A DNA stretch of 64,000 nucleotides from Terriglobia bacterium (GCA_963666975.2 CAXVYR010000003.1:256001-320000), one strand, 5' to 3'. Positions 49,483-64,000 are shown, counted from the first letter of the stretch. The notes: generated by a model not told the origin, from the letters alone. A program made the numbers and translations.

Positions 49483-49854
49483 ATGAGACAAAAACAAGAC
49501 GACAGGGGGGCGGTCGAGAAGGCCGTCCGGGAGATCAAACGCAGGACGCGGCGCAGGTTCAGCCCGGAAGACAAAATCCGCATTGTATTGCAGGGACTTC
49601 GCGGCGAGGACAGCATCGCGGAGCTGTGCCGCCGCGAGGGGCTGCACCAGAACCAGTATTACCGCTGGAGCAAGGAGTTTCTGGAGGCTGGCCGCAAGCG
49701 GCTGGCGGGCGACATAGACCGTGAGGCAACCAGTGGCGAAGTCAAGACTCTGCGGGAGCAGGCCGTACAGCTGAAAGAGGCCCTGGCCGAGGCTATGCTG
49801 GAAAATCGCCTGCTAAAAAAAAGCGTGATCGGGGATGGGGAGGAACATACATGA
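49483..49854 (+). CDS. IS3-family transposase OrfA
   Basis: Identical translation to 29853..30224. Confidence 0.88.
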   Translation: MRQKQDDRGAVEKAVREIKRRTRRRFSPEDKIRIVLQGLRGEDSIAELCRREGLHQNQYYRWSKEFLEAGRKRLAGDIDREATSGEVKTLREQAVQLKEALAEAMLENRLLKKSVIGDGEEHT

Positions 49855-50834
49855 GATACCCTGCCTCGGAGAAGCTGGAGATCATCTGCACGGTGGAGCA
49901 ATCTGCCCTGGGGGTGCGCCGGACGCTGCAGCAGGTTGGCATTCCCAGATCGACGTTTTACAACTGGTACGACCGCTATGTGTCGGAAGGCTTTGATGGG
50001 CTGGAAGACAAAAAACCCGATCCTGGCCCTGTCTGGAACAAGGTGCCGGAGGAGATAACTCAGCAGTTGGTGACGTTAGCCCTGGCCGAGCCCGATCTGT
50101 CGTCACGCGAGCTGGCGGTGCGTTTTACCGAGGAAAGGCGGTATTACCTTTCTGAATCGACGGTTTACCGCGTCCTGAAAAGCCATGACCTGATTACCGC
50201 GCCAGCCTTTATTGTCCTGAAAGCGGCGGAACGGTTCGCCAACCCGACCACGGCGGTCAACCAGCTCTGGCAGACCGACTTCACCTACCTGAAAGTCATC
50301 GGTTGGGGCTGGTTCTACCTGTCCACGGTGCTGGACGACTTCTCGCGCTATATCATCGCCTGGCGGCTGTGCAAAACCATGAGCGCAAGTGACGTCTCGG
50401 CCACGTTGCGGGATGCTTTGCAAGCCACCGGCCTCGACCGCGTGGGCGCCCGGCACAGACCTCGCCTCCTGAGCGACAACGGGCCGTGCTACGTCTCTTC
50501 CGAACTGCAATCATGGCTGGCAGAAAACAGCGTGCCGCATACTCGCGGCAAGCCCTATCACCCCATGACGCAGGGCAAGATCGAACGCTGGCACCGAACT
50601 CTGAAAGACCGCATCCTGCTCAACAACTATTACCTGCCAGAAGAGCTGGAGCGGCAGATCGATGCCTTCGTCAACCACTACAACACCAACCGATACCATG
50701 AAAGCCTGAACAACCTGACACCGTATGACGTTTTTACAGGCCAAGGCAGTGCCATCCTGCAAAAACGGGATCGCATCAAAGAGAAAACTATGATCTTAAG
50801 AAAACGGTTGCACTTCAAAAGAAGGGCAGCCTAA
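49851..50834 (+). CDS. IS3-family transposase OrfB
   Basis: Identical translation to 30221..31204. Confidence 0.9.
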   Translation: MRYPASEKLEIICTVEQSALGVRRTLQQVGIPRSTFYNWYDRYVSEGFDGLEDKKPDPGPVWNKVPEEITQQLVTLALAEPDLSSRELAVRFTEERRYYLSESTVYRVLKSHDLITAPAFIVLKAAERFANPTTAVNQLWQTDFTYLKVIGWGWFYLSTVLDDFSRYIIAWRLCKTMSASDVSATLRDALQATGLDRVGARHRPRLLSDNGPCYVSSELQSWLAENSVPHTRGKPYHPMTQGKIERWHRTLKDRILLNNYYLPEELERQIDAFVNHYNTNRYHESLNNLTPYDVFTGQGSAILQKRDRIKEKTMILRKRLHFKRRAA

Positions 50835-50907
50835 CATCAACCCAGAGGAGCCTGAACGCCACCTTATCTTTTTATGCTCTGTGTCCAACATTATCTGACG
50901 ACGTACA

Positions 50908-51904
50908 CCTGGACGAACGGGGAGAGATGTCCATTCGCACGGGGTGGGGTTATCTGGGCCCCGATTATTCGCAAGGAACATTGGAAACCATGGCCAGCCT
51001 GGTGGGCACCGGAACGGATTACATGTGGCTGGTGGGTGCTTGGGCGGTGAAAAACGGAGGTTCTTGCACCACTATCAATGCGAAGCCGGAAGTCAAGGCG
51101 AGGGAAAATTGCAACTTTTCACCTCCAGGTTCTGAAGACTTCAAGGAAACCGGCTATCAGCAGATGTACGACATCATCAAGAGTGGGCTGCGAGTGGCTA
51201 CGATGCACTCAGGAGGCGACAAGGACATTGACCAGTACATGGACATTATAGAAAAGGCGAGTGCGGATGCTGGTATGACCCTGGATGAAATCCGCGCGAA
51301 GCGCCACACTTTTGACCATCTAAGTCTTGCTCCTCGTCCGGGGCAACTGGATCGGCTCAAAAAGTTGGGAATGATGACCAGCGGGAACCCCATGTACGTG
51401 TACAACACGGCCCCTGACGTAGCCAAAGATTACGGTGAAGAATACACAGCTTGGATCGATCCGAGGAAAAACCAGGTCGATGCCGGGATTATGAGTTCAT
51501 TAGAGACAGATACTCCACTTAGTCAGCATGAGGGCACGATCTTCGAAGTGGCCGTCGTCGAGTTGACGCGCCGGTCCATGGATGGGAATCTCGTCGAGTT
51601 GACGCGCCGGTCCATGGATGGGAAGGTGCATTCACCCAATATGCAAATGGATCGTGAACGGGTATTGAAATCAATGACGACCTGGGGAGCTTACTACTTA
51701 ATCAGAGAGAAATTGTTAGGATCGCTCGAACCCGGAAAGCTGGCAGACATGATCATCATTGACCGGGATTACCTGACAATTCCAGAAGAGGAGGTTGGCA
51801 AGATTCAGGTGCTGGCAACGATGGTAGGCGGGAAGTTCGTGTATGCGGGTCGGGACTTTGCGACCGAAAACGGAATGAGCCCAGTCGGCTACCAAAGGAA
51901 CTAG
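50908..51904 (+). pseudogene. Amidohydrolase_3 paralog 3, C-terminal fragment
   Basis: Resumes at LDERGEMSIR; MHSGGDKDID, RHTFDH, ETD, GSLEPGKLAD; includes a 36-bp in-frame duplication. Confidence 0.85.
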
Positions 51905-52162: not shown

Positions 52163-52190
52163 GCGCCCCAGAAGTCCGGTTATGGGAAGT
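52163..52190. other. dif/Xer-like site S1
   Basis: GCGCCCCAGAA-GTCCGG-TTATGGGAAGT (11-6-11); spacer and right arm identical to S3. Confidence 0.65.
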
Positions 52191-52292
52191 TAGGGGCGAA
52201 CGGCACTCTCTGGGATAGATCGCGAGTAACGGCGCAGTAGCGACCTATCCTGCCCGCCGGATAGGTAAATACTACGCGACAAGGCAGGATCT

Positions 52293-52320
52293 ATTTCCCA
52301 GAACGCCGTTTATGTCCAAC
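52293..52320. other. dif/Xer-like site S2
   Basis: ATTTCCCAGAA-CGCCGT-TTATGTCCAAC; right arm resembles XerD arms (TTATGTtAAaT). Confidence 0.55.
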
Positions 52321-52476
52321 TACACTACGGCGTCACTCGCAGGTAAACGTGGCAAATGTGTCCGCTGAGGGCTATTCTGCTAGGGAGTCGTATCTGAACA
52401 GGGGGTGAATCATCTGGGAGGCCGTTACGGGAAGCTGCTGATGGGAAATTATCGGGGGCTCCGACTCTGATTATTG

Positions 52477-52519
52477 TGTATGCTGGCTGGTGGCCGGGAA
52501 AGCAAAATGGAAATCCTGG
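52477..52519 (+). mobile_element. IS1380-type right-end remnant
   Basis: GTGTATGCTGGC…GCCGGGAA.GCAAAATGGAAATCCTGG matches 47719-47762. Confidence 0.65.
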
Positions 52520-52600
52520 CTAATACGAAAAGGAATTATCAAGCGAGAGACGTTTTACTGAACCGGAGTTTTGACTTTTGAAACCGGAGGGCCCGACTGA

Positions 52601-54439
52601 ATGAACCTGGCAAAATTATTATTGATGCGCAGAAAATTCCTAGTTTTCTCCTTTTTGCTGTTTTTCATCTCCCCAAGTGCTTGGGGACAGTCCAATGTAG
52701 CGGCCCTGCTGGGCTACCCGGACCTCATCGTTCACAATGCCAAGATTGTGACCATGGACGATGCCACGTTCGAGTCGAGGGTAGGCACCATCGGGCAAGC
52801 GATGGCGCTGCGCGGGGACAAGGTATTGGCCGTCGGATCCAACTCGGAGATTCGCGCGCTGGCCGGGCCGCAAACCCGGCAGATGGACCTAAAAGGCCGC
52901 ACCGTGCTGCCGAGCTTCATCATGACTCACGAGCACCCCACCGACTGGGCCTTCGCCGAGCCTGAGGCTCTGAAGCACGCCCTGCCTGCGGATAGTGATG
53001 TCATGGTCATGCGGTGGCTGGAAGGGACCGCACAGCAACAACTGGATCAATGGGAGACCGTGCTGAGAGAAGCCGTCGCCGCAGCCAGCCCGGGCCAGTG
53101 GATCTGGCTGAGTTTTTTCTGGGGAACAAATTATGAGCATGCAGATGAACTTTGGCAACAATTTCCCCGTGTGGTCACCCAGGAGCGCCTCGACCAGCTT
53201 GCGCCGAACAATCCTGTCAGGGTTAAGAATAGCTGGCCGCTAATGTCGGCGAACAACACCAAGGCTGTGGAAGAGTTGAAGAAAGTCCATCCGGAAGCTA
53301 GTGCGGGAGCGAACCGCCTGTACGAGCCTAATGTGATCTTCCAGGGCTGGACCGAGGTCTTGGCGGATGTGCTTAAGGCCGAAATGGAGCTGTGGGTGGC
53401 TCAAGGCATCACGACATTTGGCTCCTCTCCTTATGCCTATAACAACTTCCAGGCATTGGCGTATCTGGATCGAAGAGGAGAGATGCCTGCTCGTTTCGCC
53501 TGGGGCTACACCGGCCCCGATTTTCACATCGAGACATTGCGTTACGTTGCGGGATTGGTGGGAAGTGGCAGCCCGTATCTTTGGAACGTGGGTGCCTGGG
53601 ATGCGTCCGGGGGTAGCTGTACGACGCTCAACGCTCGCACGCCCGAAATCAAGGCCCGCGAGAGCTGCAACTTTGCTCCAGGGAGCCCGGGTAGAAAGGT
53701 TCTCGATGATATCATCCGGACCGACGGCCGGGTGGCCACCATGCACACCCAGGGAGACAAGGATATCGACTATTTCATGGACGCTATTGAGCAAGTCAGC
53801 AGAGAGGCAGGCATCTCCTTGGAAGAGATTCGGGCCAAGCGCCACGCCTTTGATCACGCTTCTGGCGCCCCCCGACCGGACCAGATTCCACGCGTTAAGA
53901 ATTTGGGGATGATGGTCAGCATGATCAACACCATGTTGTGGGAAACCCACCGCACTTACGATACTTCCAGCCGTGTGCGCGATTATGGAATCGAGTATGC
54001 CAACCTGTCGGTGCCCCGAAAGAGCGTGACAGACGCGGGAATCATGAACACCTTTGAGATCGATCGTCCGCTGCCGCACCTGGTGTTCACCATGATTCAC
54101 AAAGGCATCACCCGATACAGCGATCAAGACGGCGCAGTCTACGGGCCCCGGGAAAGGACCGACCGGATCATCCAGTTGAAGGCGTTAACGGTGTGGGGAG
54201 GCTATTACGTGCTGCGGGAAAATCTATTGGGAACGCTGGAGCGCGGCAAGTACGCCGATTTCATTGTGCTGGACCGGGACTATCTGACCATTCCGGAAGA
54301 CGATATTCCCAATACCAAAGTCTTGATGACAGTGGTCGGTGGCAAGACGATGCACTTGATGCCTTCTCTGGCGGCGGAGAACGGGATGCAACCGGCGGGC
54401 CCGGTCACGTGGAGCACAAAACCCCTGGAGAATTACTAA
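52601..54439 (+). CDS. Secreted amidohydrolase_3 paralog 4
   Basis: Signal peptide, THEHPTDW, MHTQGDKDID, RHAFDH, EIDRP. Confidence 0.88.
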   Translation: MNLAKLLLMRRKFLVFSFLLFFISPSAWGQSNVAALLGYPDLIVHNAKIVTMDDATFESRVGTIGQAMALRGDKVLAVGSNSEIRALAGPQTRQMDLKGRTVLPSFIMTHEHPTDWAFAEPEALKHALPADSDVMVMRWLEGTAQQQLDQWETVLREAVAAASPGQWIWLSFFWGTNYEHADELWQQFPRVVTQERLDQLAPNNPVRVKNSWPLMSANNTKAVEELKKVHPEASAGANRLYEPNVIFQGWTEVLADVLKAEMELWVAQGITTFGSSPYAYNNFQALAYLDRRGEMPARFAWGYTGPDFHIETLRYVAGLVGSGSPYLWNVGAWDASGGSCTTLNARTPEIKARESCNFAPGSPGRKVLDDIIRTDGRVATMHTQGDKDIDYFMDAIEQVSREAGISLEEIRAKRHAFDHASGAPRPDQIPRVKNLGMMVSMINTMLWETHRTYDTSSRVRDYGIEYANLSVPRKSVTDAGIMNTFEIDRPLPHLVFTMIHKGITRYSDQDGAVYGPRERTDRIIQLKALTVWGGYYVLRENLLGTLERGKYADFIVLDRDYLTIPEDDIPNTKVLMTVVGGKTMHLMPSLAAENGMQPAGPVTWSTKPLENY

Positions 54440-54507
54440 TTTCCTGGGCCGCTCATTGTGCGTTAAAACTGGACCTTCTTTATCTTCATCCAACCGCATT
54501 TTTGATT

Positions 54508-54544
54508 CCGGTGGCTGGCCGCTTTCTGAGAGGCCAGCCACCGG
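54508..54544. terminator. GC-rich hairpin downstream of paralog 4
   Basis: CCGGTGGCTGGCC…GGCCAGCCACCGG 13-bp stem; no clear U-tract. Confidence 0.5.
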
Positions 54545-54921
54545 GACTCACAAGCGGAGACCTTTGTCTTCCTGATGGGAAGGTCTAGCTCGCTACAGCG
54601 GTTTCTTTCTTATCCACCTTCTCCACCCGAACCGAAACCGGCACCGACTTGGAAACGACGTTGAACACAGGAGAATAATTGGTCGGTTCGGCCATTTCTT
54701 CCGCTGTAATGGCCATTCTGGTAAAATACTTTAAAGCCCTATATAGGAGATTTTCTCTCAATTCAGGTGATTGGATAGGGGCGAAGGCTCCGACGCATCC
54801 CGCGTAGACTTTGGTTGGTTTGGAGAGAAGTAAACTGTTGGCGGGAAGCAAAGCTTCGAGGCTGGGATCTATGAGACTATCGCTGGTTGGTAGCTACTCG
54901 AAATCAAGTCTTCGGGCGTTC

Positions 54922-55431
54922 TCAATTCAGCGTGACGTAGCGCTCTAACCTGGCGACTTCGTTCTCGTTCACATACTTGCCAATCTCGCGCCGGAATTGA
55001 TCGATATTCCGGTACGGGCGGTACTCCTTAAACTCGCGCAGCATCCGGGCACCCACACCGGGGATACTCAGGATGTCTTCGTCGCTCGCAGTATTGAGGT
55101 TGATCGGCACGAAGATGTACTGCTCAAGGCGAGCCACTTCCGCCTCGTCCACGTACTTGCCGATCTCCCTGCGGAACTGCGCGAGCGTTTTGTACGGCCT
55201 GTACTCGAGAAACTCGCGCAGCATCCGGTTCCCCTCGCCAGGGATCATCAGGATCTCCTCCTGCATCGCAGTGTTGAGGTTGATATGGACGAACATCCTT
55301 GCGTACAGCTCAGACAGTTGTTCCTTGTTGAGCGACTGAATGAGGAACGAATGCAGTTCCGTCATGCTCAGGAAGGGGCGTCGCTCTATGATTCCCTTCA
55401 CGATCGCCGTATCGAGGTGCGGAAGCGCCAT
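54922..55431 (-). CDS. Helix-hairpin-helix repeat protein (ComEA-like), probably N-truncated
   Basis: Tandem units INLNTA..E.IL.IPG.G.RMLREF.EYRPY….QFRREIGKYV; the first unit is incomplete. Confidence 0.75.
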   Translation of the reverse strand: MALPHLDTAIVKGIIERRPFLSMTELHSFLIQSLNKEQLSELYARMFVHINLNTAMQEEILMIPGEGNRMLREFLEYRPYKTLAQFRREIGKYVDEAEVARLEQYIFVPINLNTASDEDILSIPGVGARMLREFKEYRPYRNIDQFRREIGKYVNENEVARLERYVTLN

Positions 55432-55572
55432 TCCTTATTATTTCGAGTAGCCACCACTTGCTCTGACAAACGCACCCGTGAGGTTCCTGCCCCTTCCTGG
55501 AAGCGGTTCCCGATTGGGGAACTCGACTTCAGTCCTGTCTTCGCCTCCTTCCCCAATCGGTTCTCTTCTGCT

Positions 55573-57462
55573 TTACTGTGACACGGAGTGCCAGCCTGAG
55601 TGCCAGCCCGGTGGAATCTGCTCCCTCCACGTCGTCGGCCCCACCGGCTGCATCCCAACCTCCCGGGCCAACGCGTCCCCCAAGTGCACCGTCTTGCCGC
55701 CGACTACCGTCATCAGTACTTGAATGTTTGGAATGTCATCATCCGGAATCGCCAGAAAGTCCCGATCCAGCACCATGAAGTCCGCAAACTTGCCCGGCTC
55801 CAGCGTTCCCAATAGGTTCTCCCGCATCAAATAGTAGGCACCCCACCGGGTGTGCGCCTTCAACTGGATGATCCGATCCGTCCTCTCCCGCGGTCCATAG
55901 ACTTGTCCATCATCTTTGTTGACTCGAGTCATTCCTTTGTGAATGAACAGGAACACTTTCTCCTGTAATCCCCGATCAATCTCGGCGCCGGTCATCACGC
56001 CCGCATCCGCCATGCTCCTCCGCGGGACAACCCAATTGGCGTATTCAATCCCATACCTCTCGGCTTTCAGCTTTGCCGTGTCACTCCACAAATAGGTGTT
56101 GTTCTGGCTGGCCATCATTCCCAAATTTTTCATCCGGAGAATTTGATCTGGGCGCGGGGCGCCGCCACCGTGGTCAAAGGTATGGCGTTTTGCGCGGATT
56201 TCCTCGAGAGTTAGGCCCGCCCTCTGGCTGGCTTGCTCGATCATATCCATGTAATAGTCGATATCCTTGTCCCCTCCAGTATGCATCGTTGCCACTCGAT
56301 TGCCAGTTGCTATGATCCGTTCCAGAATCTCCCTGCCTTGTGCACCTGGTGCGAAATTGCAGCCTTGCGCCGCCCTCGCGTCTTCCTGACCGGCCCGTAA
56401 GGGAATGCTCATACATTCGGAGCCGATTTCCGCCCAGGCACCCGTAAGCCATAGATGGTCAGTGCCATGTCCCGTCATAGCCGCTATTTGGCGCAGGGTA
56501 TCCATGCTAAAGTCAGGACCGAGATAGCCCCAAGCGAAGCGGGCTGGCATTTCTCCCTTCTTGTCTAAGTAGTCCAGAGCTACGAGGTTGTTATACGCAT
56601 AGGGAGCAGAAGCAAAGGTAGTAATCCCATAGCGCGCCCACACCTCCATTTCGGCTTTGAGAATCTCGGCGAGCACCGGAACCTTGCCCTGGAGCATAAC
56701 ATCCGGTTCTATCGCCCGGCTGAAGCCACTCCCTGTCTTAAAAAACTCTTCGGGGGCCATGATGAACACCGGAGTGGGGGAAAAAATCGAGATGTCCGGA
56801 TGAACCTTGAGCGTCTCGTCAATGGCGCTCTGGTTGGCTACGCCGCCAACAAATCCATTTTTTATCTTCACCGGGTTGTTCGGCGCTAATGTATCGAGCC
56901 ACTCCTTTTTGATGCTGGTGCGAAATAGCTCGGACACTTCATCTATCCATTCATAATTTGGTCCCCGGGAGAAGCCAATTAGAATCCATTGCCCTGGTCT
57001 TGCCTTCGCCACCGCCTCTTTCAGGGTCGGCTCAAATTGTATCAACTGATCCCTCGCGGGACCGCCCCGCAGCCAGCGGTGGACAATGACATCATCATTG
57101 GGCAACGCATGAGTCATGGCTCGTGGTGTCGAAAAGGCCCAATCGGTAGGGTGCTCATGCGTCATCAGGAACCCCGGGAGCACCGTCCTGCCCTTCAGGT
57201 CAATCACCCTGGTCTGGGGCCCCGCCAGCGGCCGAATCTCGGCGTCGCTTCCCGTCGCCAGAATCTTCCCGTCCCGAATCGCCATTGCCTGAACAATGGT
57301 TCCTACCCGAGACTCAAACGAGGCATCATCCACCGTAACAATCTTGCCGTTGTAAATAATCATCGGCGGATAGCCCAGCTTGGCCATGATATCTGCTTGC
57401 TGAGCCCATCCACCAACACACCAAAACATCATTAGCACCGCCGACCAACATCTCTTCTTCAT
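55573..57462 (-). CDS. Secreted amidohydrolase_3 paralog 5
   Basis: Signal peptide, THEHPTDW, MHTGGDKDID, RHTFDH, EIDRG. Confidence 0.88.
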   Translation of the reverse strand: MKKRCWSAVLMMFWCVGGWAQQADIMAKLGYPPMIIYNGKIVTVDDASFESRVGTIVQAMAIRDGKILATGSDAEIRPLAGPQTRVIDLKGRTVLPGFLMTHEHPTDWAFSTPRAMTHALPNDDVIVHRWLRGGPARDQLIQFEPTLKEAVAKARPGQWILIGFSRGPNYEWIDEVSELFRTSIKKEWLDTLAPNNPVKIKNGFVGGVANQSAIDETLKVHPDISIFSPTPVFIMAPEEFFKTGSGFSRAIEPDVMLQGKVPVLAEILKAEMEVWARYGITTFASAPYAYNNLVALDYLDKKGEMPARFAWGYLGPDFSMDTLRQIAAMTGHGTDHLWLTGAWAEIGSECMSIPLRAGQEDARAAQGCNFAPGAQGREILERIIATGNRVATMHTGGDKDIDYYMDMIEQASQRAGLTLEEIRAKRHTFDHGGGAPRPDQILRMKNLGMMASQNNTYLWSDTAKLKAERYGIEYANWVVPRRSMADAGVMTGAEIDRGLQEKVFLFIHKGMTRVNKDDGQVYGPRERTDRIIQLKAHTRWGAYYLMRENLLGTLEPGKFADFMVLDRDFLAIPDDDIPNIQVLMTVVGGKTVHLGDALAREVGMQPVGPTTWREQIPPGWHSGWHSVSQ

Positions 57463-57577
57463 TATTCCCTCCTCATACTTATCCCAAATTCGATTACCTC
57501 TGGCTGCTTACCTCGAAGTACCCGGCGTGTGGCACAAGATTGGAGCCAGGAACGAACCAGCCGGCTGGAGCTCTTAG

Positions 57578-57642
57578 CCGGAATTTCCATTTTGAGCTTC
57601 ATCTTCACCCGAAAACCTATGCCGCCTACCCTGTCGTGTCAA
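57578..57642 (-). mobile_element. IS1380-type right-end remnant with outward promoter
   Basis: Minus strand TTGACA-N17-TAGGTT…GCTCAAAATGGAAATTCCGG. Confidence 0.6.
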
Positions 57643-57665
57643 GCGTGATCGTCATGGCATGGGGC

Positions 57666-57737
57666 CCCCATACCACCCGCACCTAGTGGGCTGAGGATCT
57701 CATACGAGCCAAGACGGGCACCTGGGGATATGGGCAA
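57666..57737 (-). pseudogene. 5' stub of a Ser/Thr protein kinase
   Basis: (TTG)PISPGARLGSYEILSPLGAGGMG. Confidence 0.75.
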
Positions 57738-57774
57738 GTTTTACCCCCCCCCGATGATTGAATTTAATGGGAAA

Positions 57775-57803
57775 AGATTACACGAGGGGAGAGGGGAAAG
57801 CAA
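57775..57803 (-). promoter_or_regulatory. Shared promoter copy 4 (TTGCTT-N17-TAATCT)
   Basis: Points toward the kinase stub and paralog 5; divergent from the recombinase. Confidence 0.6.
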
Positions 57804-57857
57804 TTGCTGGAAGAGGGATAAGCTGAACGGCAGTACGGGGCGGACAAGTCCCGGATT

Positions 57858-57885
57858 ACTCCCCATAAGTCCGGTTATGGGAAGT
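57858..57885. other. dif/Xer-like site S3
   Basis: ACTCCCCATAA-GTCCGG-TTATGGGAAGT; arms are 10/11 inverted repeats; 98 bp upstream of the recombinase. Confidence 0.75.
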
Positions 57886-57983
57886 GTGGGAGGACGGCAG
57901 TCGCCAGGATAGATCTTGAGTAACGGCGCAGGGAAGAGTTTCGGCGGCATTCTTGGCGGCGACGGCAAAGGAGGCCGTCGCCA

Positions 57984-58934
57984 ATGCCAAAATCTAGGAA
58001 GAAGCGGAAATCGCCGAAGCGGGTCCTGGCGCTGCCTGATCTGGAACAATCAAAGTCAGCGGTCCTAAACAGCCTAACGTCAAAGAGTGGTCAACGAACA
58101 TACAACCATGCCATCGACGAGTTTGTCGGGTGGTATTGCTCAGAACCACGCCTGGCTTTCAATCGCACCGTCGTCCTGCGTTATCGAATCCATCTCGAAC
58201 AGAAACAGTACGCTCCGTCAACAGTCAACCTGCGCCTCGCTGCAATCCGGCGTGTTGCGTATGAGGCTGCCGATTCGGGCCTACTCAGCCCGGAGTTGGC
58301 CGCAGGCATCCGCCGGGTCAAAGGAGTTAGGCGGCTCGGTATCCGTGTCGGAAACTGGCTTACTGCTGAACAGGGCAAGCGCCTGTTACAGGGATCATCC
58401 CATGATCACCAGCGTGGCAAGAGGAATTACGCCATGCTAGCGATGCTCATCGGGTGCGGTCTCCGACGCGGCGAACTGTTGGCCTTGAATCTGGACTCGA
58501 TTCAGCAACGGGAGGAACACTGGGTCATTGCGGACTTGATCGGAAAAGGAGGCCACATTCGCACGGTGCCAATCCCAACCTGGGTCAAAGTGGCAATCGA
58601 TGCCTGGACGGAGTCCAGCGGAATCCGGGATGGGCGTGTATTCCGGTCCATCAATAAGGCTAGCAAAATCTGGGGTAACGGCATGACCGAGAAAGTACTC
58701 TGGGAGATTGTTCGAGAAGCGGCAAGTCGGGCAGGGATAGAAAAGCTCGCTCCGCATGACCTGAGACGCACGTGTGCCCGGTTCTGCCATCTGGCGGGTG
58801 GTGAACTGGATCAGATTCAATTCCTTCTCGGGCACGTTTCAATACAGACCACGGAAAGATACTTGGGTTGCAAACAGAGGCTTCATTGCGCTGTCAACGA
58901 CAAGATGGGGATTGAACCAGAGGGTTTCTGTTGA
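57984..58934 (+). CDS. Tyrosine recombinase (Xer-sized, intact)
   Basis: RBS AAGGAGG; GLRRGEL (R), GKGG (K), HDLRR, LGH, TTERY. Confidence 0.92.
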   Translation: MPKSRKKRKSPKRVLALPDLEQSKSAVLNSLTSKSGQRTYNHAIDEFVGWYCSEPRLAFNRTVVLRYRIHLEQKQYAPSTVNLRLAAIRRVAYEAADSGLLSPELAAGIRRVKGVRRLGIRVGNWLTAEQGKRLLQGSSHDHQRGKRNYAMLAMLIGCGLRRGELLALNLDSIQQREEHWVIADLIGKGGHIRTVPIPTWVKVAIDAWTESSGIRDGRVFRSINKASKIWGNGMTEKVLWEIVREAASRAGIEKLAPHDLRRTCARFCHLAGGELDQIQFLLGHVSIQTTERYLGCKQRLHCAVNDKMGIEPEGFC

Positions 58935-59135
58935 TCGCGATAGGCTACCGGCCAAACGGGGCGGAATAGCCCGCCCCTAGGCGACTCTTCGTTTCCTGTC
59001 GCCGAAACGCTTGCCTCTTGTGCTAATGCAGTCCCTCGAATGGGATTGTGACGAAATCAAGCCTTGATCCAGTAAAGGAACCAATTGAGCGTGTATAATT
59101 GGAAACCGATTCAGGACTCTAAGGAGGCACCAGGC

Positions 59136-60023
59136 ATGAAGACTGTGACGCACTTGTGGAGGAGCCGCATCACGGTGGGTATGTTAGCTCTCAGCGTTGG
59201 GTTGATATCAAGTTGCTCCGGGCCAGCCGAGCCCAACCCAGGCACCGTAGCAACCCCGCCCGAAGCGGGACATATCGCCTATGCGCCGACAGCAGAGGAT
59301 GAGCTGCCGCCAGCGATTCTCGGGCAAGCGCCGGCACCACAAGGAACAAACCTCCAGTACTTGGAGGACGACCCTTCGACGAATGGCTATCTCGCGCTGC
59401 CCGCTGGCGAAGGTTCGCATCCCGCCCTAATTCTGGTGCACGAGTGGGACGGGCTCAACGATCGCGTCCGGCAGGTCGCTGACGCGTTCGCAGCCGAAGG
59501 TTACGTGGCGCTGGCGGCAGACCTCTATCAAGGCCGGACGGGTAGCAACCCGGAGGAGAACATGGCCCTCGTCAATGAAACGATGGCCCAGCCGCAGAGG
59601 GTTATCCAAAACCTGAATGCGGCTGCGGCGACGCTTCGCAATCACCCCGCTGTGAGCGGCCGGATTGCTGTCATGGGGTGGTGCTTCGGAGGTGGCGTAG
59701 CCTTGAGCTACGGTCTCGACGGCGAGGAGCACGACGGAACCGCGATGTTTTACGGTCGGCTCGTGCAGGATCCTGAACAACTCGCGAAGCTGAACCACCC
59801 GATTTACGGCACTTTCGCGTCGGAAGACACAGGCATTCCGCCCGCCGACGTCGAAAGGTTCGTCGAAGCGCTGCGGACGGCAGGCATCGAGAACGATGTG
59901 CACATCTATGACGACGTCAACCATGGCTTCTGGCTGTGGGTTGATCAGGTCCCGGCGCGGACGGAGGCGGCGCTGGGCGCGTGGCAGCGACTGAAAGCGT
60001 ACCTGAATCGCGTGCTCGGATAG
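59136..60023 (+). CDS. Dienelactone hydrolase-family lipoprotein
   Basis: Lipobox-like ISSC; HEWDG, GWCFGG nucleophile, ED, HGF; RBS AAGGAGG. Confidence 0.88.
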   Translation: MKTVTHLWRSRITVGMLALSVGLISSCSGPAEPNPGTVATPPEAGHIAYAPTAEDELPPAILGQAPAPQGTNLQYLEDDPSTNGYLALPAGEGSHPALILVHEWDGLNDRVRQVADAFAAEGYVALAADLYQGRTGSNPEENMALVNETMAQPQRVIQNLNAAAATLRNHPAVSGRIAVMGWCFGGGVALSYGLDGEEHDGTAMFYGRLVQDPEQLAKLNHPIYGTFASEDTGIPPADVERFVEALRTAGIENDVHIYDDVNHGFWLWVDQVPARTEAALGAWQRLKAYLNRVLG

Positions 60024-60696
60024 TCGTCGGCTATTCCTCCAGCGGACTCTCGGTCCTCACGGCCTTGGTGCTCGCGATCTACTCCTGAGTAACGGCGTAG
60101 TGGCGACCTATCCTGCCCGCCGGATAGGTAAACACTTGGCGACTTATGGGGAGTAATCCGGGACTTGCCTCCTCGACCGAACTCGGCGTTGCCCTGGCCA
60201 TTTCTTCCACCAAAATCAGTTTCATGCCCCAGGCTGTGATGTACATTCGCACACTGGTGATACATCGGTCGAAGGGTCACCAAACAGTTGCAGGTTGGGA
60301 GACGGGTTGAGTCTTCTCCGGCGCGATCGCAAGGCCCGGAGACGGAGGCGGATACGCCGTTTGGGCGCATCGTCGAACTCGCCGTGGCCAGCAATTGAGT
60401 CGTTTTCCGCACACCGACTGAAAGCGTGGATGGCCTGGGAGTCCCCTGATCCGTAAATCGCGTGCTCGGATAGTCGTCGGCTATTCCTCCAGCGGACTCT
60501 CGGTCCTCACGGCCTTGGTGCTCGCGATCTACTCCTGAGTAACGGCGTAGTGGCGACCTATCCTGCCCGCCGGATAGGTAAACACTTGGCGACTTAGCTT
60601 GGGGAGTAATCCGGGACTTGCCTCCTCGACCGAACTCGGCGTTGCCCTGTAGCCATTTCTTCCACCAAAATCAGTTTCATAGCCCCAGGCTGTGAT
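60006..60696 (+). repeat. Imperfect direct duplication (60006-60240 and 60456-60696)
   Basis: Offset 450; copy 2 has three small insertions totalling 6 bp. Confidence 0.9.
60127..60154. other. dif/Xer-like half site S4 (inverted relative to S3/S5)
   Basis: Right arm TTATGGGGAGT (60144-60154) preceded by GAC; left arm degenerate. Confidence 0.55.
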
Positions 60697-60898
60697 TCAG
60701 ATCCACCACCGGCAACAGCATCTGTCCTTGAGTTGGTTTGGCAAAACTTCCCCTTGTGGTTTCACATTCGCACACTGGTGGTACAAGATATCGGTCTGGT
60801 CACCACAGACAGAGACTGAGTCAAAAAACTTCTTCTTGGTCGTCGCAAAGATCGTGGCTCACCCTGGATACACCGTCATCGCGCCCGAGTTTTGCGGC

Positions 60899-62827
60899 TC
60901 AGTACGCCTTTGGTTCCCACCCCGTGGGGATGGGTTCCGCCCAGGTGGTTGGCCCCACCTGCTGCATCCCGAACTCCCTGGCCAGCGTAGCACCCAAGTG
61001 GATCGTTTTGCCACCGACCACAGTCATCAACACCTGGGTCTGTGGGATTTCCGCTTCTGGTATGGCCAGGAAGTCCCGATCGAGCACGATGAAATCCGCG
61101 AACTTCCCCGGCTCCAGCGTTCCTAGGAGGTTCTCCCGCAGCACGTAATAGCCGCCCCACACCGTCAGGGCCTTCAACTGAGTGATCCGGTCGGTTCTCT
61201 CCCTCGGCCCATAGACCCTCTGGTCCCGGTCGTTGTACCGGTTCATCCCCTTGGTGATGAAGAAGAACACCTTGTGGGGCAACGGCCGGTCTATCTCAAA
61301 GGTGTTCATGATCCCGGCGTCCGTCACACTTTTTCGCGGCACTACCCAGTTCGTGTACTCGAGCCCATACTGCTTCGCAATCACTGAGGCCCCCCGATGA
61401 GTCTCCCACAAAATCGTATTGAGCATGCTCGTCATCATCCCCAGGTTCTTAATCCTAGGGATTTGCTGCGGTCGAGGCGCTCCCGCGCCATGATCAAAAG
61501 CATGCCGCTTGGCGCGAATCATTTCCAGCGTCATCCCAGCCCGTCTACTTCCTTCCTCAATTGCATCCATGACGTAGTCAATCCCTTTGTCTCCTCCTGA
61601 ATGCATTGCTGCAATGCGGCCGCCGGATTGGGCGATTCTCGCATTCCTTTCATACCCAGTCGTGCCAGGAGCATTACTGCACTTTTCCTCCCGTGGACTG
61701 CCTCCTAACGCCGCCCTCCATTGAGGTCTTTCAGAAACCGAGAAGCAGCCACCATCAGAACCTCTAGCTCCCATGTTCCACACATGATCTGTCCCATGCC
61801 CCATAATGCCAGCCAGAACATGCAACGCTTCTAAGCTCCAACTCGGTCCGTCATAAGACCACGCAAACCGAGATGGCATCTCTCCCTTCTGATCCAAAAG
61901 ATGAAGGGCTCGCAGGTTAGAAGTAGTATAAGGTCCCGAACCAATGGACGTAATTCCGTAGCTGGACCATATCTCCATTTCTGCCTTGAGTAAATCAGCC
62001 AAGAGTGGCAGCTTCCCCTTGAGCATGACATCGGAACCTACCGGACGTTCTAATCTACCTGATCGGGCAATCCTACTAACAATCTCCGGATCGCGTCGGG
62101 TCTCATCAATGCCTGCATTGCGAAGATTGTAAGCATTAGTCAAATCCGGATGCACACTGCGATATTCTTCCACACCCTTCGTATTGGACATGCAAGCGCT
62201 TGTAAAGCCATTACTGATGCAGACCGGGTTGTTGGGCGACAATACATCGAGGTATTCTTTCGTGATGGAGTCGTTCCAGAATCCGCCACGTGGCCCCCTA
62301 AATTCTTCCGCCCACTCGTAGTCCGGACCCCAGTTGGGAATCACCCGGATCCACTGACCCGGTTTTGCCTTCGCCACAGCCTCCCGCATCGTTGGCTCAA
62401 ACAGCGCCAACTGTTCCCTCGCAGGAAGGCTTGGCAACCAGCGAGAAATGATCACATCATCGTTAGGGAACACTTGCCGGAAAGCTCGAGGCTCTGTCCA
62501 CATCCAATCCGTCGGATGCTCGTGCGACATGATGAAGCTCGGCAGCACCGTCCTGCCCTTCAGGTCAATCGTCTGGGTCTGCGGCCCTGCCAATGCCCGC
62601 ACCTCCGCATTTGTCCCCATCTCCAGGATTTTCCCGTCCCGGACCGCCATCGCCTGCACGATTGTCCCCACCCTCGACTCAAACGAGGCATCATCCATCG
62701 TCACGATCTTGCCGTTGTAGACAATCATCTGGGGATAGCCCAACTTGGCAGCCACATCCACTCCCTGAGCCCACCCCCACACGCCGCATAGAACTGCTGC
62801 AAAAGCTATAGTCAATGTTTTCTTCAT
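60899..62827 (-). CDS. Secreted amidohydrolase_3 paralog 6
   Basis: RBS GGAGGAG, MKKTLT signal peptide, SHEHPTDW, MHSGGDKGID, RHAFDH, EIDRP. Confidence 0.88.
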   Translation of the reverse strand: MKKTLTIAFAAVLCGVWGWAQGVDVAAKLGYPQMIVYNGKIVTMDDASFESRVGTIVQAMAVRDGKILEMGTNAEVRALAGPQTQTIDLKGRTVLPSFIMSHEHPTDWMWTEPRAFRQVFPNDDVIISRWLPSLPAREQLALFEPTMREAVAKAKPGQWIRVIPNWGPDYEWAEEFRGPRGGFWNDSITKEYLDVLSPNNPVCISNGFTSACMSNTKGVEEYRSVHPDLTNAYNLRNAGIDETRRDPEIVSRIARSGRLERPVGSDVMLKGKLPLLADLLKAEMEIWSSYGITSIGSGPYTTSNLRALHLLDQKGEMPSRFAWSYDGPSWSLEALHVLAGIMGHGTDHVWNMGARGSDGGCFSVSERPQWRAALGGSPREEKCSNAPGTTGYERNARIAQSGGRIAAMHSGGDKGIDYVMDAIEEGSRRAGMTLEMIRAKRHAFDHGAGAPRPQQIPRIKNLGMMTSMLNTILWETHRGASVIAKQYGLEYTNWVVPRKSVTDAGIMNTFEIDRPLPHKVFFFITKGMNRYNDRDQRVYGPRERTDRITQLKALTVWGGYYVLRENLLGTLEPGKFADFIVLDRDFLAIPEAEIPQTQVLMTVVGGKTIHLGATLAREFGMQQVGPTTWAEPIPTGWEPKAY

Positions 62828-62898
62828 CTCACTTATCTCCTCCGCAAAAATCTTCCCAAGCAAAAAGGCGCTTCCAGAAATACCATGCCCCCAATGAT

Positions 62899-62979
62899 AT
62901 ACACCTCCCTCATGCCGCCCCCACCAATAGGTGCGAATATCTTGTAAGGACCTAAGTTTTTGCCTGGGGAAATGGCCAC
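62899..62979 (-). pseudogene. 5' stub of a Ser/Thr protein kinase
   Basis: RBS GGAGG, (GTG)AISPGKNLGPYKIFAPIGGGGMREVY. Confidence 0.75.
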
Positions 62980-63015
62980 GCCGTTGCCTCCCACTTGTTT
63001 GGAACTGTTGGGCAA

Positions 63016-63044
63016 AGATTACACGAGGGGAGAGGGTAAATCAA
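63016..63044 (-). promoter_or_regulatory. Shared promoter copy 5 (TTGATT-N17-TAATCT)
   Basis: Same motif; points toward the kinase stub and paralog 6. Confidence 0.6.
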
Positions 63045-63112
63045 TTGGGGACAGGGACTTGCTCAGTCTACGACCGAGCGCCGAGTGTGGTCTAGGAAGC
63101 AAGTCCCGGATT

Positions 63113-63126
63113 ACTCCCCATAAGTC
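63113..63126. other. dif/Xer-like half site S5, interrupted by IS30
   Basis: ACTCCCCATAA-GTC, then the IS30 left end. Confidence 0.6.
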
Positions 63127-64000
63127 GGGTGATCTCAACTGGTGGATGCAACACTTTACGCGAAAGGAAAAGGTGAAGTGTATGCGAAAGAAACAAAAGA
63201 GGAAGCGGCGAGGTTTCACAGCGACGGAGCTGGCCGAGGTGTGGGATCGGTGGCAGCGAGGAGAGTCTTCCAAATTGATCGCACGTGTGCTTGGGAGAGG
63301 GTCGTCTGTGTACTCCGTGCTTTTGCGCCACGGTGGTATCCGTCCCCGTCCCCGATTGCGCTCACGCCTGGCGCTGAGGTTAGCCGAGCGTGAGGAGATG
63401 TCCAGAGGCGTGGCGGCGAAGCAGTCGATCCGATCGATTGCCGTGTTGCTCGGACGCTCACCATCGACAGTGAGCCGGGAGATCTGTCGTAACGGCGGCT
63501 ATGATAAGTATCGGGCGTCGACTGCAGATGAGTAGACATGGGAGCGGGCACGTCGCCCGAAGCCCTGTCGGCTGGCCCGCTGTTCCCGGGTACGCCAGCT
63601 TGTTGAAGAGAAGCTCCGGGAGGACTGCTCCCCTCAACAGATTGCGGGCTGGCTAAAACGCACCTACTCGGAAGACGAGTCGGTTCACGTGTCACACGAG
63701 ACGATCTATCGCAGTCTTTTCATTCAGGCCCGCGGGGCTCTGAAGAAAGGACTCTCACAGTATCTGCGTACCAGACGCACGATTCGCCGGTCCCGGCATG
63801 CGACCCGCAAAGGCCGTGGTGGCGGGCAGATCCCGGACCTCATATCCATCCGTGAGCGTCCGGTTTCAGTGGAAGGCCGGGCGGTACCCGGTCACTGGGA
63901 AGGTGACCTGATTGCCGGATCGAAGAACACCTACATTGCGACTCTGGTGGAACGTCACTCGCGTTATGTGATGCTGGCGAAGGTGCCCAACAAGGAAACC
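63127..64000 (+). mobile_element. IS30-family element (runs off window); transposase from 63182 with in-frame TAG at 63533
   Basis: Left end GGGTGATCTCAACTGGTGGATGCAACAC; LGRSPSTVSREI, SPQQI, VSHETIY, PGHWEGDLI in one frame across the stop. Confidence 0.88.

Follow-up and report, generated by a model that had tools for sequence, protein, structure and literature searches.

Organization of the locus

The window analyzed here is the whole stretch of 64,000 nucleotides from a Terriglobia bacterium, corresponding to G000:C3:256001-320000 (contig C3 of assembly G000; 4.23 Mb, 4 contigs, 58% G+C). Between positions 52,163 and 63,126, it holds an intact gene for a Xer-like simple tyrosine recombinase, three amidohydrolase genes, single genes for a helix-hairpin-helix and a dienelactone-hydrolase-family protein, and at least ten sites of the tyrosine-recombinase type (Table 1). 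These sites have 15-nt "GGAT" arms in common and come with three kinds of centers: each is built from inverted 15-nt arms beginning with GGAT around an 8-bp center, a build that the first-pass annotation of this DNA had described in an 11-6-11 register for five of them (S1 to S5). The L centers read AACGSCGY and include that of S2, the R centers read GSCGAC (AGTCGSC on the other strand) and include that of S4, and a third class of centers, AGTCnnGT, is found in S1, S3 and S5. With moderate confidence, we read this region as a nest of small site-bounded modules belonging to a module system that is built on the sites of the recombinase family.

Table 1. Sites, repeats and genes of the region (positions counted from the first nucleotide of the window)
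Feature	Position	Strand	Description
S1	52163-52190	.	AGTC-class; GCGCCCCAGAA GTCCGG TTATGGGAAGT; left edge of mini-module
Mini-module	52163-52324	+	Arm b, left stretch common with 57861-57931, L site, 8 bp, R site, S2
L site, complete 15-8-15 palindrome	52213-52250	+	GGATAGATCGCGAGT AACGGCGC AGTAGCGACCTATCC; arm scores 9 and 8 of 9
R-type site of the miniature	52259-52296	+	GGATAGGTAAATACT ACGCGACA AGGCAGGATCTATTT; register from comparison with S4
S2, L-type (52293-52320 in the first-pass register)	52287-52324	+	Center AACGCCGT at 52302-52309; left arm GGATCTATTTCCCAG
Amidohydrolase A1 (Amidohydro_3)	52601-54439	+	612 aa
Helix-hairpin-helix protein	54922-55431	-	169 aa, two internal repeats
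Amidohydrolase A2 (Amidohydro_3)	55573-57462	-	629 aa
27-nt repeat with arm a1 GGATTACTCCCCATA	57845-57871	+	End of a dispersed repeat of ~90-170 bp
S3, complete AGTC-class site	57858-57885	.	ACTCCCCATAA GTCCGG TTATGGGAAGT; homology with locus L013 begins in the spacer, at 57867
L site upstream of the recombinase gene	57907-57944	+	Good outer arm GGATAGATCTTGAGT; center AACGGCGC at 57922-57929; poor inner arm AGGGAAGAGTTTCGG
Xer-like simple tyrosine recombinase	57984-58934	+	316 aa, catalytic motifs intact
Right end of the recombinase unit	58958-59001	+	GC hairpin 58958-58977; R center AGGCGACT at 58979-58986; weak outer arm
Dienelactone-hydrolase-family protein	59085-60023	+	312 aa; cargo enclosed by the R site and the following L site
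450-bp direct duplication	copies 60006-60240 and 60456-60696	+	Second copy holds an L site, 60526-60563, and S4', 60577-60607 (3 extra bases)
Complete L site	60076-60113	+	GATCTACTCCTGAGT AACGGCGT AGTGGCGACCTATCC
S4, R site	60122-60159	+	GGATAGGTAAACACT TGGCGACT TATGGGGAGTAATCC; outer arm is the inverted 27-nt repeat 60141-60167
Amidohydrolase A3 (Amidohydro_3)	60899-62863	-	654 aa
S5	63100-63127	+	27-nt repeat, arm a1, first spacer bases; split by an IS30-type element from ~63128
IS30-type transposase	from ~63128

The sites belong to genuine repeat families

All five strings that had first been picked out as sites are present in the sequence, and S3 is nearly symmetric as had been proposed: its arms are complementary at 10/11 positions, making it a true 28-bp palindrome. 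The strings named S4 (60127-60154) and S5 (63113-63140) likewise exist, but each has only one arm of the proposed type, and in both cases this arm is the end of one 27-nt repeat that contains ACTCCCCATAA, which is found perfectly conserved at 57845-57871 and 63100-63126 and inverted at 60141-60167. The five strings are not free-standing but are pieces of longer dispersed repeats: about 70 bp rightward of S1 and of S3 are held in common, a 57-nt stretch (52224-52280) is found again at 60087-60143 and 60537-60593, and S2, which looks weak when taken alone, is one of 9 related copies in the genome, 8 with a CGCCGT center and 1 with CACCGT.

The bare pattern CATAA-N6-TTATG occurs only once in the 4.23 Mb, at S3, for about 1.3 estimated from base composition. 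Despite this chance level, the repeat families behind the sites are real. Allowing up to 3 mismatches, we found 8 copies of the 27-nt repeat in G000 and 7 in the same-genus genome G002, with none in 19 other genomes and none in control sequences read backwards. The S3-type 28-mer is also multi-copy and confined to these two genomes (4 loci in G000, 2 loci in G002, none in the controls). A 27-mer of the L site, searched with the same tolerance, was present in 6 copies in G000, in none in G002 or in the other same-genus genome, G001, and in 1 copy in 38 other genomes. Among 1077 AACGSCGY centers of the host genome, 13 have two arms scoring at least 7 of 9 on a rule of 9 scored positions that was taken from left arms; among the 1354 centers of the reversed genome, a score of 7 was reached by 5 left arms and by 5 right arms, the both-arm figure being available for the real genome only. 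The L sites found elsewhere in G000 lie on both strands. An unoccupied palindrome carrying arm a1 on both sides was not found in G000, G001 or G002.

Three elements had escaped the first-pass annotation: the second S4, the IS30-type element that splits S5, and the 15-8-15 palindromes centered on AACGGCGY at 52213-52250, 57907-57944, 60076-60113 and 60526-60563. Its description of alternating orientations fits S1-S2 and S4-S5, which are inverted site pairs, but the left half of S4, taken as a degenerate TTATGGGAAGT, is a different arm, GGATAGGTAAACACT. When S4 is read on the other strand, it consists of GGATTACTCCCCATA AGTCGCCA followed by the inner arm, while S3 consists of GGATTACTCCCCATA AGTCCGGT followed by its inner arm; since both can be read with the same outer arm, the class of S1, S3 and S5 shares its outer arm and its AGTC half-center with the R sites. 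The conserved right-end center of the recombinase family, read in this same sense, is aGTCGSCmA. Neither Rfam (at the gathering threshold) nor ARAGORN found anything in the whole window, so no known RNA or tRNA gene accounts for the repeats as a target.

Remnants of the ends of an IS256-family element (~1.3 kb) lie at 60271-60312 and 60692-60750, within the 450-bp duplication that doubled S4, and such ends match at least 48 places in G000.

A Xer-like recombinase with a patchy distribution

The recombinase matches Pfam PF00589 with 84.9 bits and aligns over its full length to the XerD, XerC and XerA models with about 100 bits, for cut-offs of 220-335. Considering its scores of 102.4 and 100.8 bits against the NCBIfam equivalog cut-offs for XerD and XerC of 329.6 and 335.15, it is not an XerC or XerD orthologue; its best solved relatives are the XerC-like 4a8e and XerD 1a0p. 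It consists of a core-binding and a catalytic domain only, with the R, K, HxxR, H and Y residues in place (motifs RRGE161, KGG188, HDLRR258, LGH282 and ERY291), and we grouped it with the simple (Xer-like) tyrosine recombinases following the classification of PMC8138268.

We searched for relatives of this protein in 41 related genomes and in the contigs of one genome per species; the contigs gave 128 relatives, and 79 loci were kept. Among the 41 related genomes, close homologues were found only in G033 (81% identical, besides a paralogue at 61%), G005 (a partial copy) and G026 (fragments interrupted by stops), while G001 and G002, the latter from an assembly that is 83% complete, gave matches at the XerC/XerD level only. 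The 79 kept loci encode proteins that are 52-87% identical and come nearly all from Acidobacteriota metagenome-assembled genomes (MAGs) of several orders, some of which have two copies. The recombinase family is thus horizontally moving and patchy in Acidobacteriota.

A conserved unit surrounds the gene in distant relatives

All-against-all blastn comparisons of 80 loci of the recombinase family showed that the block common to the loci, even at 96% identity, in most cases consists of the gene with ~60-105 bp upstream and ~40-70 bp downstream, and that cargo is not common to them. On the upstream side, AACGSCGYAG (with at most 1 mismatch) was found at positions -50 to -160 in 32/80 loci. Left of this L center, positions that had not been selected for were nonetheless kept, namely T at -12 (30/32), T at -8 (26/32) and G at -4 (25/32), and none was kept past -15. 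The elements of L017 and L019 are 92% identical and have unrelated outer arms, so the outer arm belongs to the flank and not to the element.

On the downstream side, a search for palindromes at the homologues mainly returned a GC-rich hairpin, and the boundary is formed by this hairpin followed by T(T/G)GSCGAC. The GSCGAC motif occurs within 130 nt past the end of the gene in 53/80 loci, compared to 213/1276 random stretches, with a T two positions before it in 47/53. When the 15 nt that follow GSCGAC and one base were reverse-complemented and scored with the arm rule, 19/53 reached at least 7/9 for a background of 39/1581, and 34/53 reached at least 6 for a background of 216/1581. Taken together, the left and right arm tests indicate that the gene unit lies between inverted copies of an arm of the type GGATnGnTCnCGAnn, in otherwise unrelated DNA.

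A search for composite repeats combining L and R in the DNA flanking the 79 foreign loci returned only 5 L sites with two fair arms; L069 looks composite by eye, and L084 alone passed the test for GSCGAC. By eye, L015, L025 (~60-350 bp upstream of the recombinase gene) and L016 carry a small toxin-antitoxin-like pair between the upstream site and the gene, one protein looking BrnT-like and another nucleotidyltransferase- or HEPN-like.

A miniature unit and joints at the site centers

The S1-S2 mini-module is, as judged from its sequence, a miniature version of the recombinase unit that lacks the recombinase gene. Its left part is 83% identical to 57861-57931. In L013, the closest foreign locus, which comes from a Terriglobia MAG and encodes a recombinase with 87% identity, the gene is preceded by this same left stretch, with GTCCCG TTCGAGGAAAT as spacer and inner arm. 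Downstream of the L013 gene, GGCGAC is followed by ATTCCCTCGAA CGCCGT TTCTGGACAGC, which is an S2-type site, and L018 has an L013-like layout after its gene. The terminal 11-mers co-vary: TTATGGGAAGT goes with TTCTGGGAAAT in the window and TTCGAGGAAAT with TTCGAGGGAAT in L013. What differs between the three is the interval from the L to the R center, which is a 38-bp hairpin in the miniature, the gene in L013, and, in the window, the gene, an R site, the hydrolase gene and a further L site. Like other non-autonomous miniatures, the S1-S2 unit has both end regions in common with the full unit, lacks the gene and is multi-copy. The window and L013 are homologous from 57867, which lies inside the S3 spacer, up to the R center, 52 bp past the stop codon.

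The proposal that the sites have a tyrosine-recombinase geometry and mark module boundaries was supported. Arm ACTCCCCATAA plus GTC is joined at the exact center to four different partners: a stretch common to S3, C3:353214 and C4:1235831; the inverted R arm at S4, at S4' and in two diverged copies; a module of 914 bp that is present at two loci; and the IS30-type element at S5. The 914-bp module encodes an AlgH-like protein (PF02622, 121 bits), and its two copies, 98.5% identical, stand in two contexts. In the copy on contig C3, the same 10 bases, AAGTCGCGTT, are found at both joints, and an unoccupied site with this AAGTCGCGTT center exists at C4:1235831.

The left end of the IS30-type element, at ~63128, was fixed by 13 near-full matches in G001. 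Past its right end, ~360 bp beyond the window, stands the missing half of S5, TTCTGGGAAGT, followed by the common stretch; S5 is therefore a complete site that was split in its spacer. The element itself (63128 to ~C3:320353) is single-copy in G000, its G001 matches have 82% identity, and its reading frame in G000 is in two pieces, an HTH part and an rve part.

Proposed mechanism and its weak points

On our reading, the recombinase gene travels as a unit of ~1.1-1.2 kb that includes an L site 60-100 bp upstream and, 30-60 bp downstream, a hairpin and an R site, both ends of the unit being set between inverted GGAT-type arms of otherwise unrelated flanking DNA. The unit of the window carries the hydrolase gene as well, between R and a further L, and lies inside a copy of a genus-restricted repeat, while the S1-S2 mini-module and similar units keep the sites and not the gene. 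In the mechanism that we propose, recombinase dimers would attach to the inverted arms, and strands would be exchanged in the center between sites with the same center, so that DNA segments may be inserted, removed or swapped at the sites, and miniatures would be served in trans. The earlier proposal of a site array served by the adjacent recombinase survives in part: the enzyme is intact and is neither XerC nor XerD, but its homologues are accompanied by upstream L sites and downstream R sites instead of an exact S3-type site.

A direct repeat, GAGTAACGGCGYAG (57919 and 60087), had been considered as a simple attL/attR pair. The conserved unit ends nearer to the gene, at the R site, and we kept this repeat only as a part of the picture.

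Several observations weigh against the proposed module system. Within 400 bp of the recombinase homologues, an S3-type site was found at only 1/79 loci, so that the expectation of the same site beside them failed; across the 597 kb of the 79 loci, a search tolerating up to 6 mismatches in the 22 arm positions returned 7 matches, and none in the reversed control. The L center as written was matched in only the 32/80 loci given above, a subgroup having a different upstream motif, and the conservation of the upstream site and of the hairpin could partly be that of a promoter or operator and of a terminator. Since the arm rule was taken from left arms, only the right-side test is independent of its source data. 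The C4 copy of the AlgH-like module has unlike centers at its two joints, so that its joint signature is suggestive and not proof. Since the centers of the L and R ends differ, a simple one-crossover excision of the unit is not expected. No recombination product was seen in the Logan contigs of 4 runs from 4 studies, which end within repeats and are blind to rare forms and to orientation across repeats. In these 4 runs, the 2217-bp piece 57899-60115 and the S5/IS30 joint were identical, and the contig skips that were seen (for instance 52294 to 60083, or 57928 to 52247 with 12 letters between) match paralogous repeats, such as C4:1235786, and are no joint of this locus. Two further points, the resemblance of the S3 arms to a host dif arm and the repeats of G002, bear on the choice of the enzyme and are weighed below.

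The host Xer/dif system as an alternative

The host has an ordinary Xer system, with XerD (TIGR02225, 362 bits for a cut-off of 329.6) and XerC (TIGR02224, 327 bits, just under its cut-off of 335) both encoded on contig C4. A candidate dif was found at C3:603309-603336 (L119, 310-337), reading ACTTTACATAA TATATA TTATCAGACGT, 30 kb from the cumulative GC skew maximum of contig C3 at 633,524. With at most 3 mismatches, it occurs exactly once in 10/21 genomes, including 9/12 of the same family, and not in the control. Considering that the host has XerC, XerD and this separate dif candidate, the sites picked out in the window are additional to the ordinary Xer/dif system, and the comparison with the chromosomal dif that had been called for shows that they differ from this single-copy TATATA site. 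S3 itself was rejected as the chromosomal dif: it is multi-copy, lies far from the skew turn (C3:313,858), and another conserved single-copy site exists.

A rather unlikely alternative, although the best of those that we weighed, is that the host XerC/XerD act on S1, S3 and S5, and perhaps on S2, as they do on pdif modules or on integrative mobile elements exploiting Xer (IMEX), the adjacent recombinase then being an unrelated passenger that inserted nearby by coincidence. Besides the presence of host XerC, XerD and a dif candidate, the S3 arms match the left arm of the candidate dif at 8 and 9 of 11 positions, so that XerCD could act on this class of sites. G002 carries both the 27-nt repeat and S3-type sites but yielded no close recombinase homologue, leaving host XerCD as a candidate enzyme for S3-type sites, and the lack of conservation of the exact S3-type site beside the recombinase homologues points in the same direction. 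However, the G002 assembly is incomplete, as mentioned above, and both S3 arms are of one kind, resembling only the left dif arm, with no second arm like the other one. In contrast to TATATA, the spacers vary and are rich in GC; 8/9 positions of the recombinase family's arm rule are matched by the outer arm of S3, GGATTACTCCCCATA; the AGTC half-center of S3 is the conserved right-end center of this same family; and L013 keeps the inner arm and spacer beside its recombinase.

Passive repeats or an invertible switch

Less probable still is that the sites are passive, REP-like intergenic repeats with a regulatory or structural role, which were duplicated and broken by insertion sequences, the recombinase unit being a decaying insertion with no exchange going on now. 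The genome is rich in repeat families, in the IS256-type ends described above and in IS481-, IS3- and IS30-type elements; IS30-type elements prefer palindromes; the a1-ending repeat lies upstream of diverse genes; and the arrangement is the same in the contigs of the 4 studies. Such a reading does not sit well with a recombinase gene that is intact with all its catalytic motifs, with a site build that recurs beside homologues in distant orders, with an L-site 27-mer that is amplified only in the genome with the enzyme, or with an AlgH-like module that has its own site-like ends and identical 10-bp joints.

That the 27-bp inverted repeat (57845-57871/60141-60167) bounds a 2.3-kb segment flipped as a switch by its own recombinase is very improbable: the inverted repeat is perfect (27/27) and models of tyrosine-type DNA invertases match the enzyme weakly (33.6 and 20 bits for cut-offs of ~221), but the centers beside the two copies differ (AGTCCGGT versus AGTCGCCA), the 27-mer occurs 8 times in the genome and is mostly unpaired, no outward promoter or split gene is evident at the edges from the reading of open reading frames, and contigs break in the repeats so that orientation is unreadable.

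Comparison with known systems

The module system that we propose most resembles the dif (pdif) modules of Acinetobacter plasmids and chromosomes, which are bounded by XerC/XerD sites (PMC6449649, PMC13141974, PMC12907356 and PMC7399989). The two have in common many ~28-bp 11-6-11 sites, small modules between oppositely oriented sites, the same module in different contexts (here the AlgH-like one), very small and near-empty modules, and an insertion sequence at a site, those of Acinetobacter being IS1202-type elements (PMC10132070). Here, inverted site pairs, the AlgH-like module in two contexts and a unit set between inverted arms were all found. The region nevertheless differs in that it lies on an acidobacterial chromosome and not on a gammaproteobacterial plasmid, in that its sites do not appear to pair an XerC-type with an XerD-type arm and have three kinds of centers, and in that a dedicated third Xer-like recombinase travels with sites of such build.

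As in integrons, a recombinase of the Xer clade stands beside an array of imperfect palindromes that separate accessory genes, and the cargo varies between copies. In contrast to integrons, the protein reaches only 48.2 bits against TIGR02249 for a cut-off of 265, with only residues 229-300 aligning, the palindromes are short (38 bp) and of a double-stranded type and are not attC, genes and sites are in mixed orientation, and the recombinase gene itself lies between two sites. An integron was thus rejected: the integrase model was not matched, and there are no co-oriented cassettes ending in attC.

IMEX exploit the Xer machinery of their hosts, and single-recombinase Xer modules include XerS/difSL and XerH/difH. 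The region shares with these elements foreign DNA at the center of a dif-like site and a recombinase gene beside its site; it differs from them in that the host dif candidate is 290 kb away, the sites are multi-copy and the host keeps XerC and XerD. An IMEX at the host dif was rejected, the candidate dif (C3:603,309) being outside the window (C3:256,001-320,000). The S1-S2 unit finally resembles MITE- or CIME-like units in that it keeps the sites without the gene and exists in several copies; it would differ from them in that its ends are recombination sites and not the inverted repeats of a transposase, its mobilization in trans being part of the proposed mechanism.

Full-text literature searches found no description of such a system in Acidobacteria. 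The main text of the classification in PMC8138268 does not mention the phylum, and its data sets or supplements may hold the family. A pdif-like module system with its own Xer-like enzyme is thus probably undescribed in print. It is a more tentative proposition, and one that we put forward as a possibility, that a dedicated Xer-like recombinase with two or three mutually incompatible centers (L, R and AGTC-type) and common GGAT arms may insert, remove or swap gene modules as a natural form of recombinase-mediated cassette exchange, move recombinase-less miniatures in trans and have contributed to module-rich islands in this genome, and that all of this may be undescribed in Acidobacteriota.

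Few systems other than integrons and the Acinetobacter dif modules are known to divide genomes into exchangeable gene modules by means of short recombination sites, and how dif modules move is still an open question in the field. If the proposed module system exists, a recombinase family that moves together with its sites and gives rise to miniatures would offer a tractable case, with only a single enzyme and three short sites to study. Some of the turnover of accessory genes in Acidobacteriota, a dominant and little-studied phylum of soil and marine environments, might be explained in this way as well, and naturally incompatible sets of centers for one enzyme would be of interest to genome engineers. 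If one of the alternatives is right instead, the outcome would be an ordinary one: a mapped host dif and a new family of palindromes targeted by insertion sequences.

Cargo and neighboring genes

The sites had also been thought to partition amidohydrolase genes as catabolic cargo. This part of the claim did not hold: secreted Amidohydro_3 proteins form a family of 87 full-length paralogues in this 4.2-Mb genome, often in tandem runs, and only 2/16 copies of the a1 repeat precede one of their genes. A role of the a1 repeat as a leader of amidohydrolase genes was rejected on the same count, the other copies preceding, by eye, genes for a sensor protein, a kinase or a small secreted protein. When compared to G001 and G002, only A1 has a clear orthologue (82-86%), the other genes matching paralogues only, and the homology around A1 stops ~200 bp to the right of S2, at 52527 or at 52581. 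The dienelactone-hydrolase-family protein has no match in G001 or G002.

Left of S1, an IS481-type transposase gene adjoins the C-terminal half of an amidohydrolase gene (49851-51904), so that the gene next to S1 is a broken copy. Inside this truncated gene (50927-51904) lies a perfect 34-nt direct repeat (51555-51624), whose copies are 36 nt apart, and the contigs of 3/4 runs skip one 36-nt unit there. The gene for the helix-hairpin-helix protein contains an internal tandem duplication (54934-55293) of two 180-nt units that are 72% alike. Two further intergenic repeat families, at 57574-57645 and 57667-57810, have roughly 20 and at least 25 copies, respectively, as counted by eye, and lie upstream of many genes.

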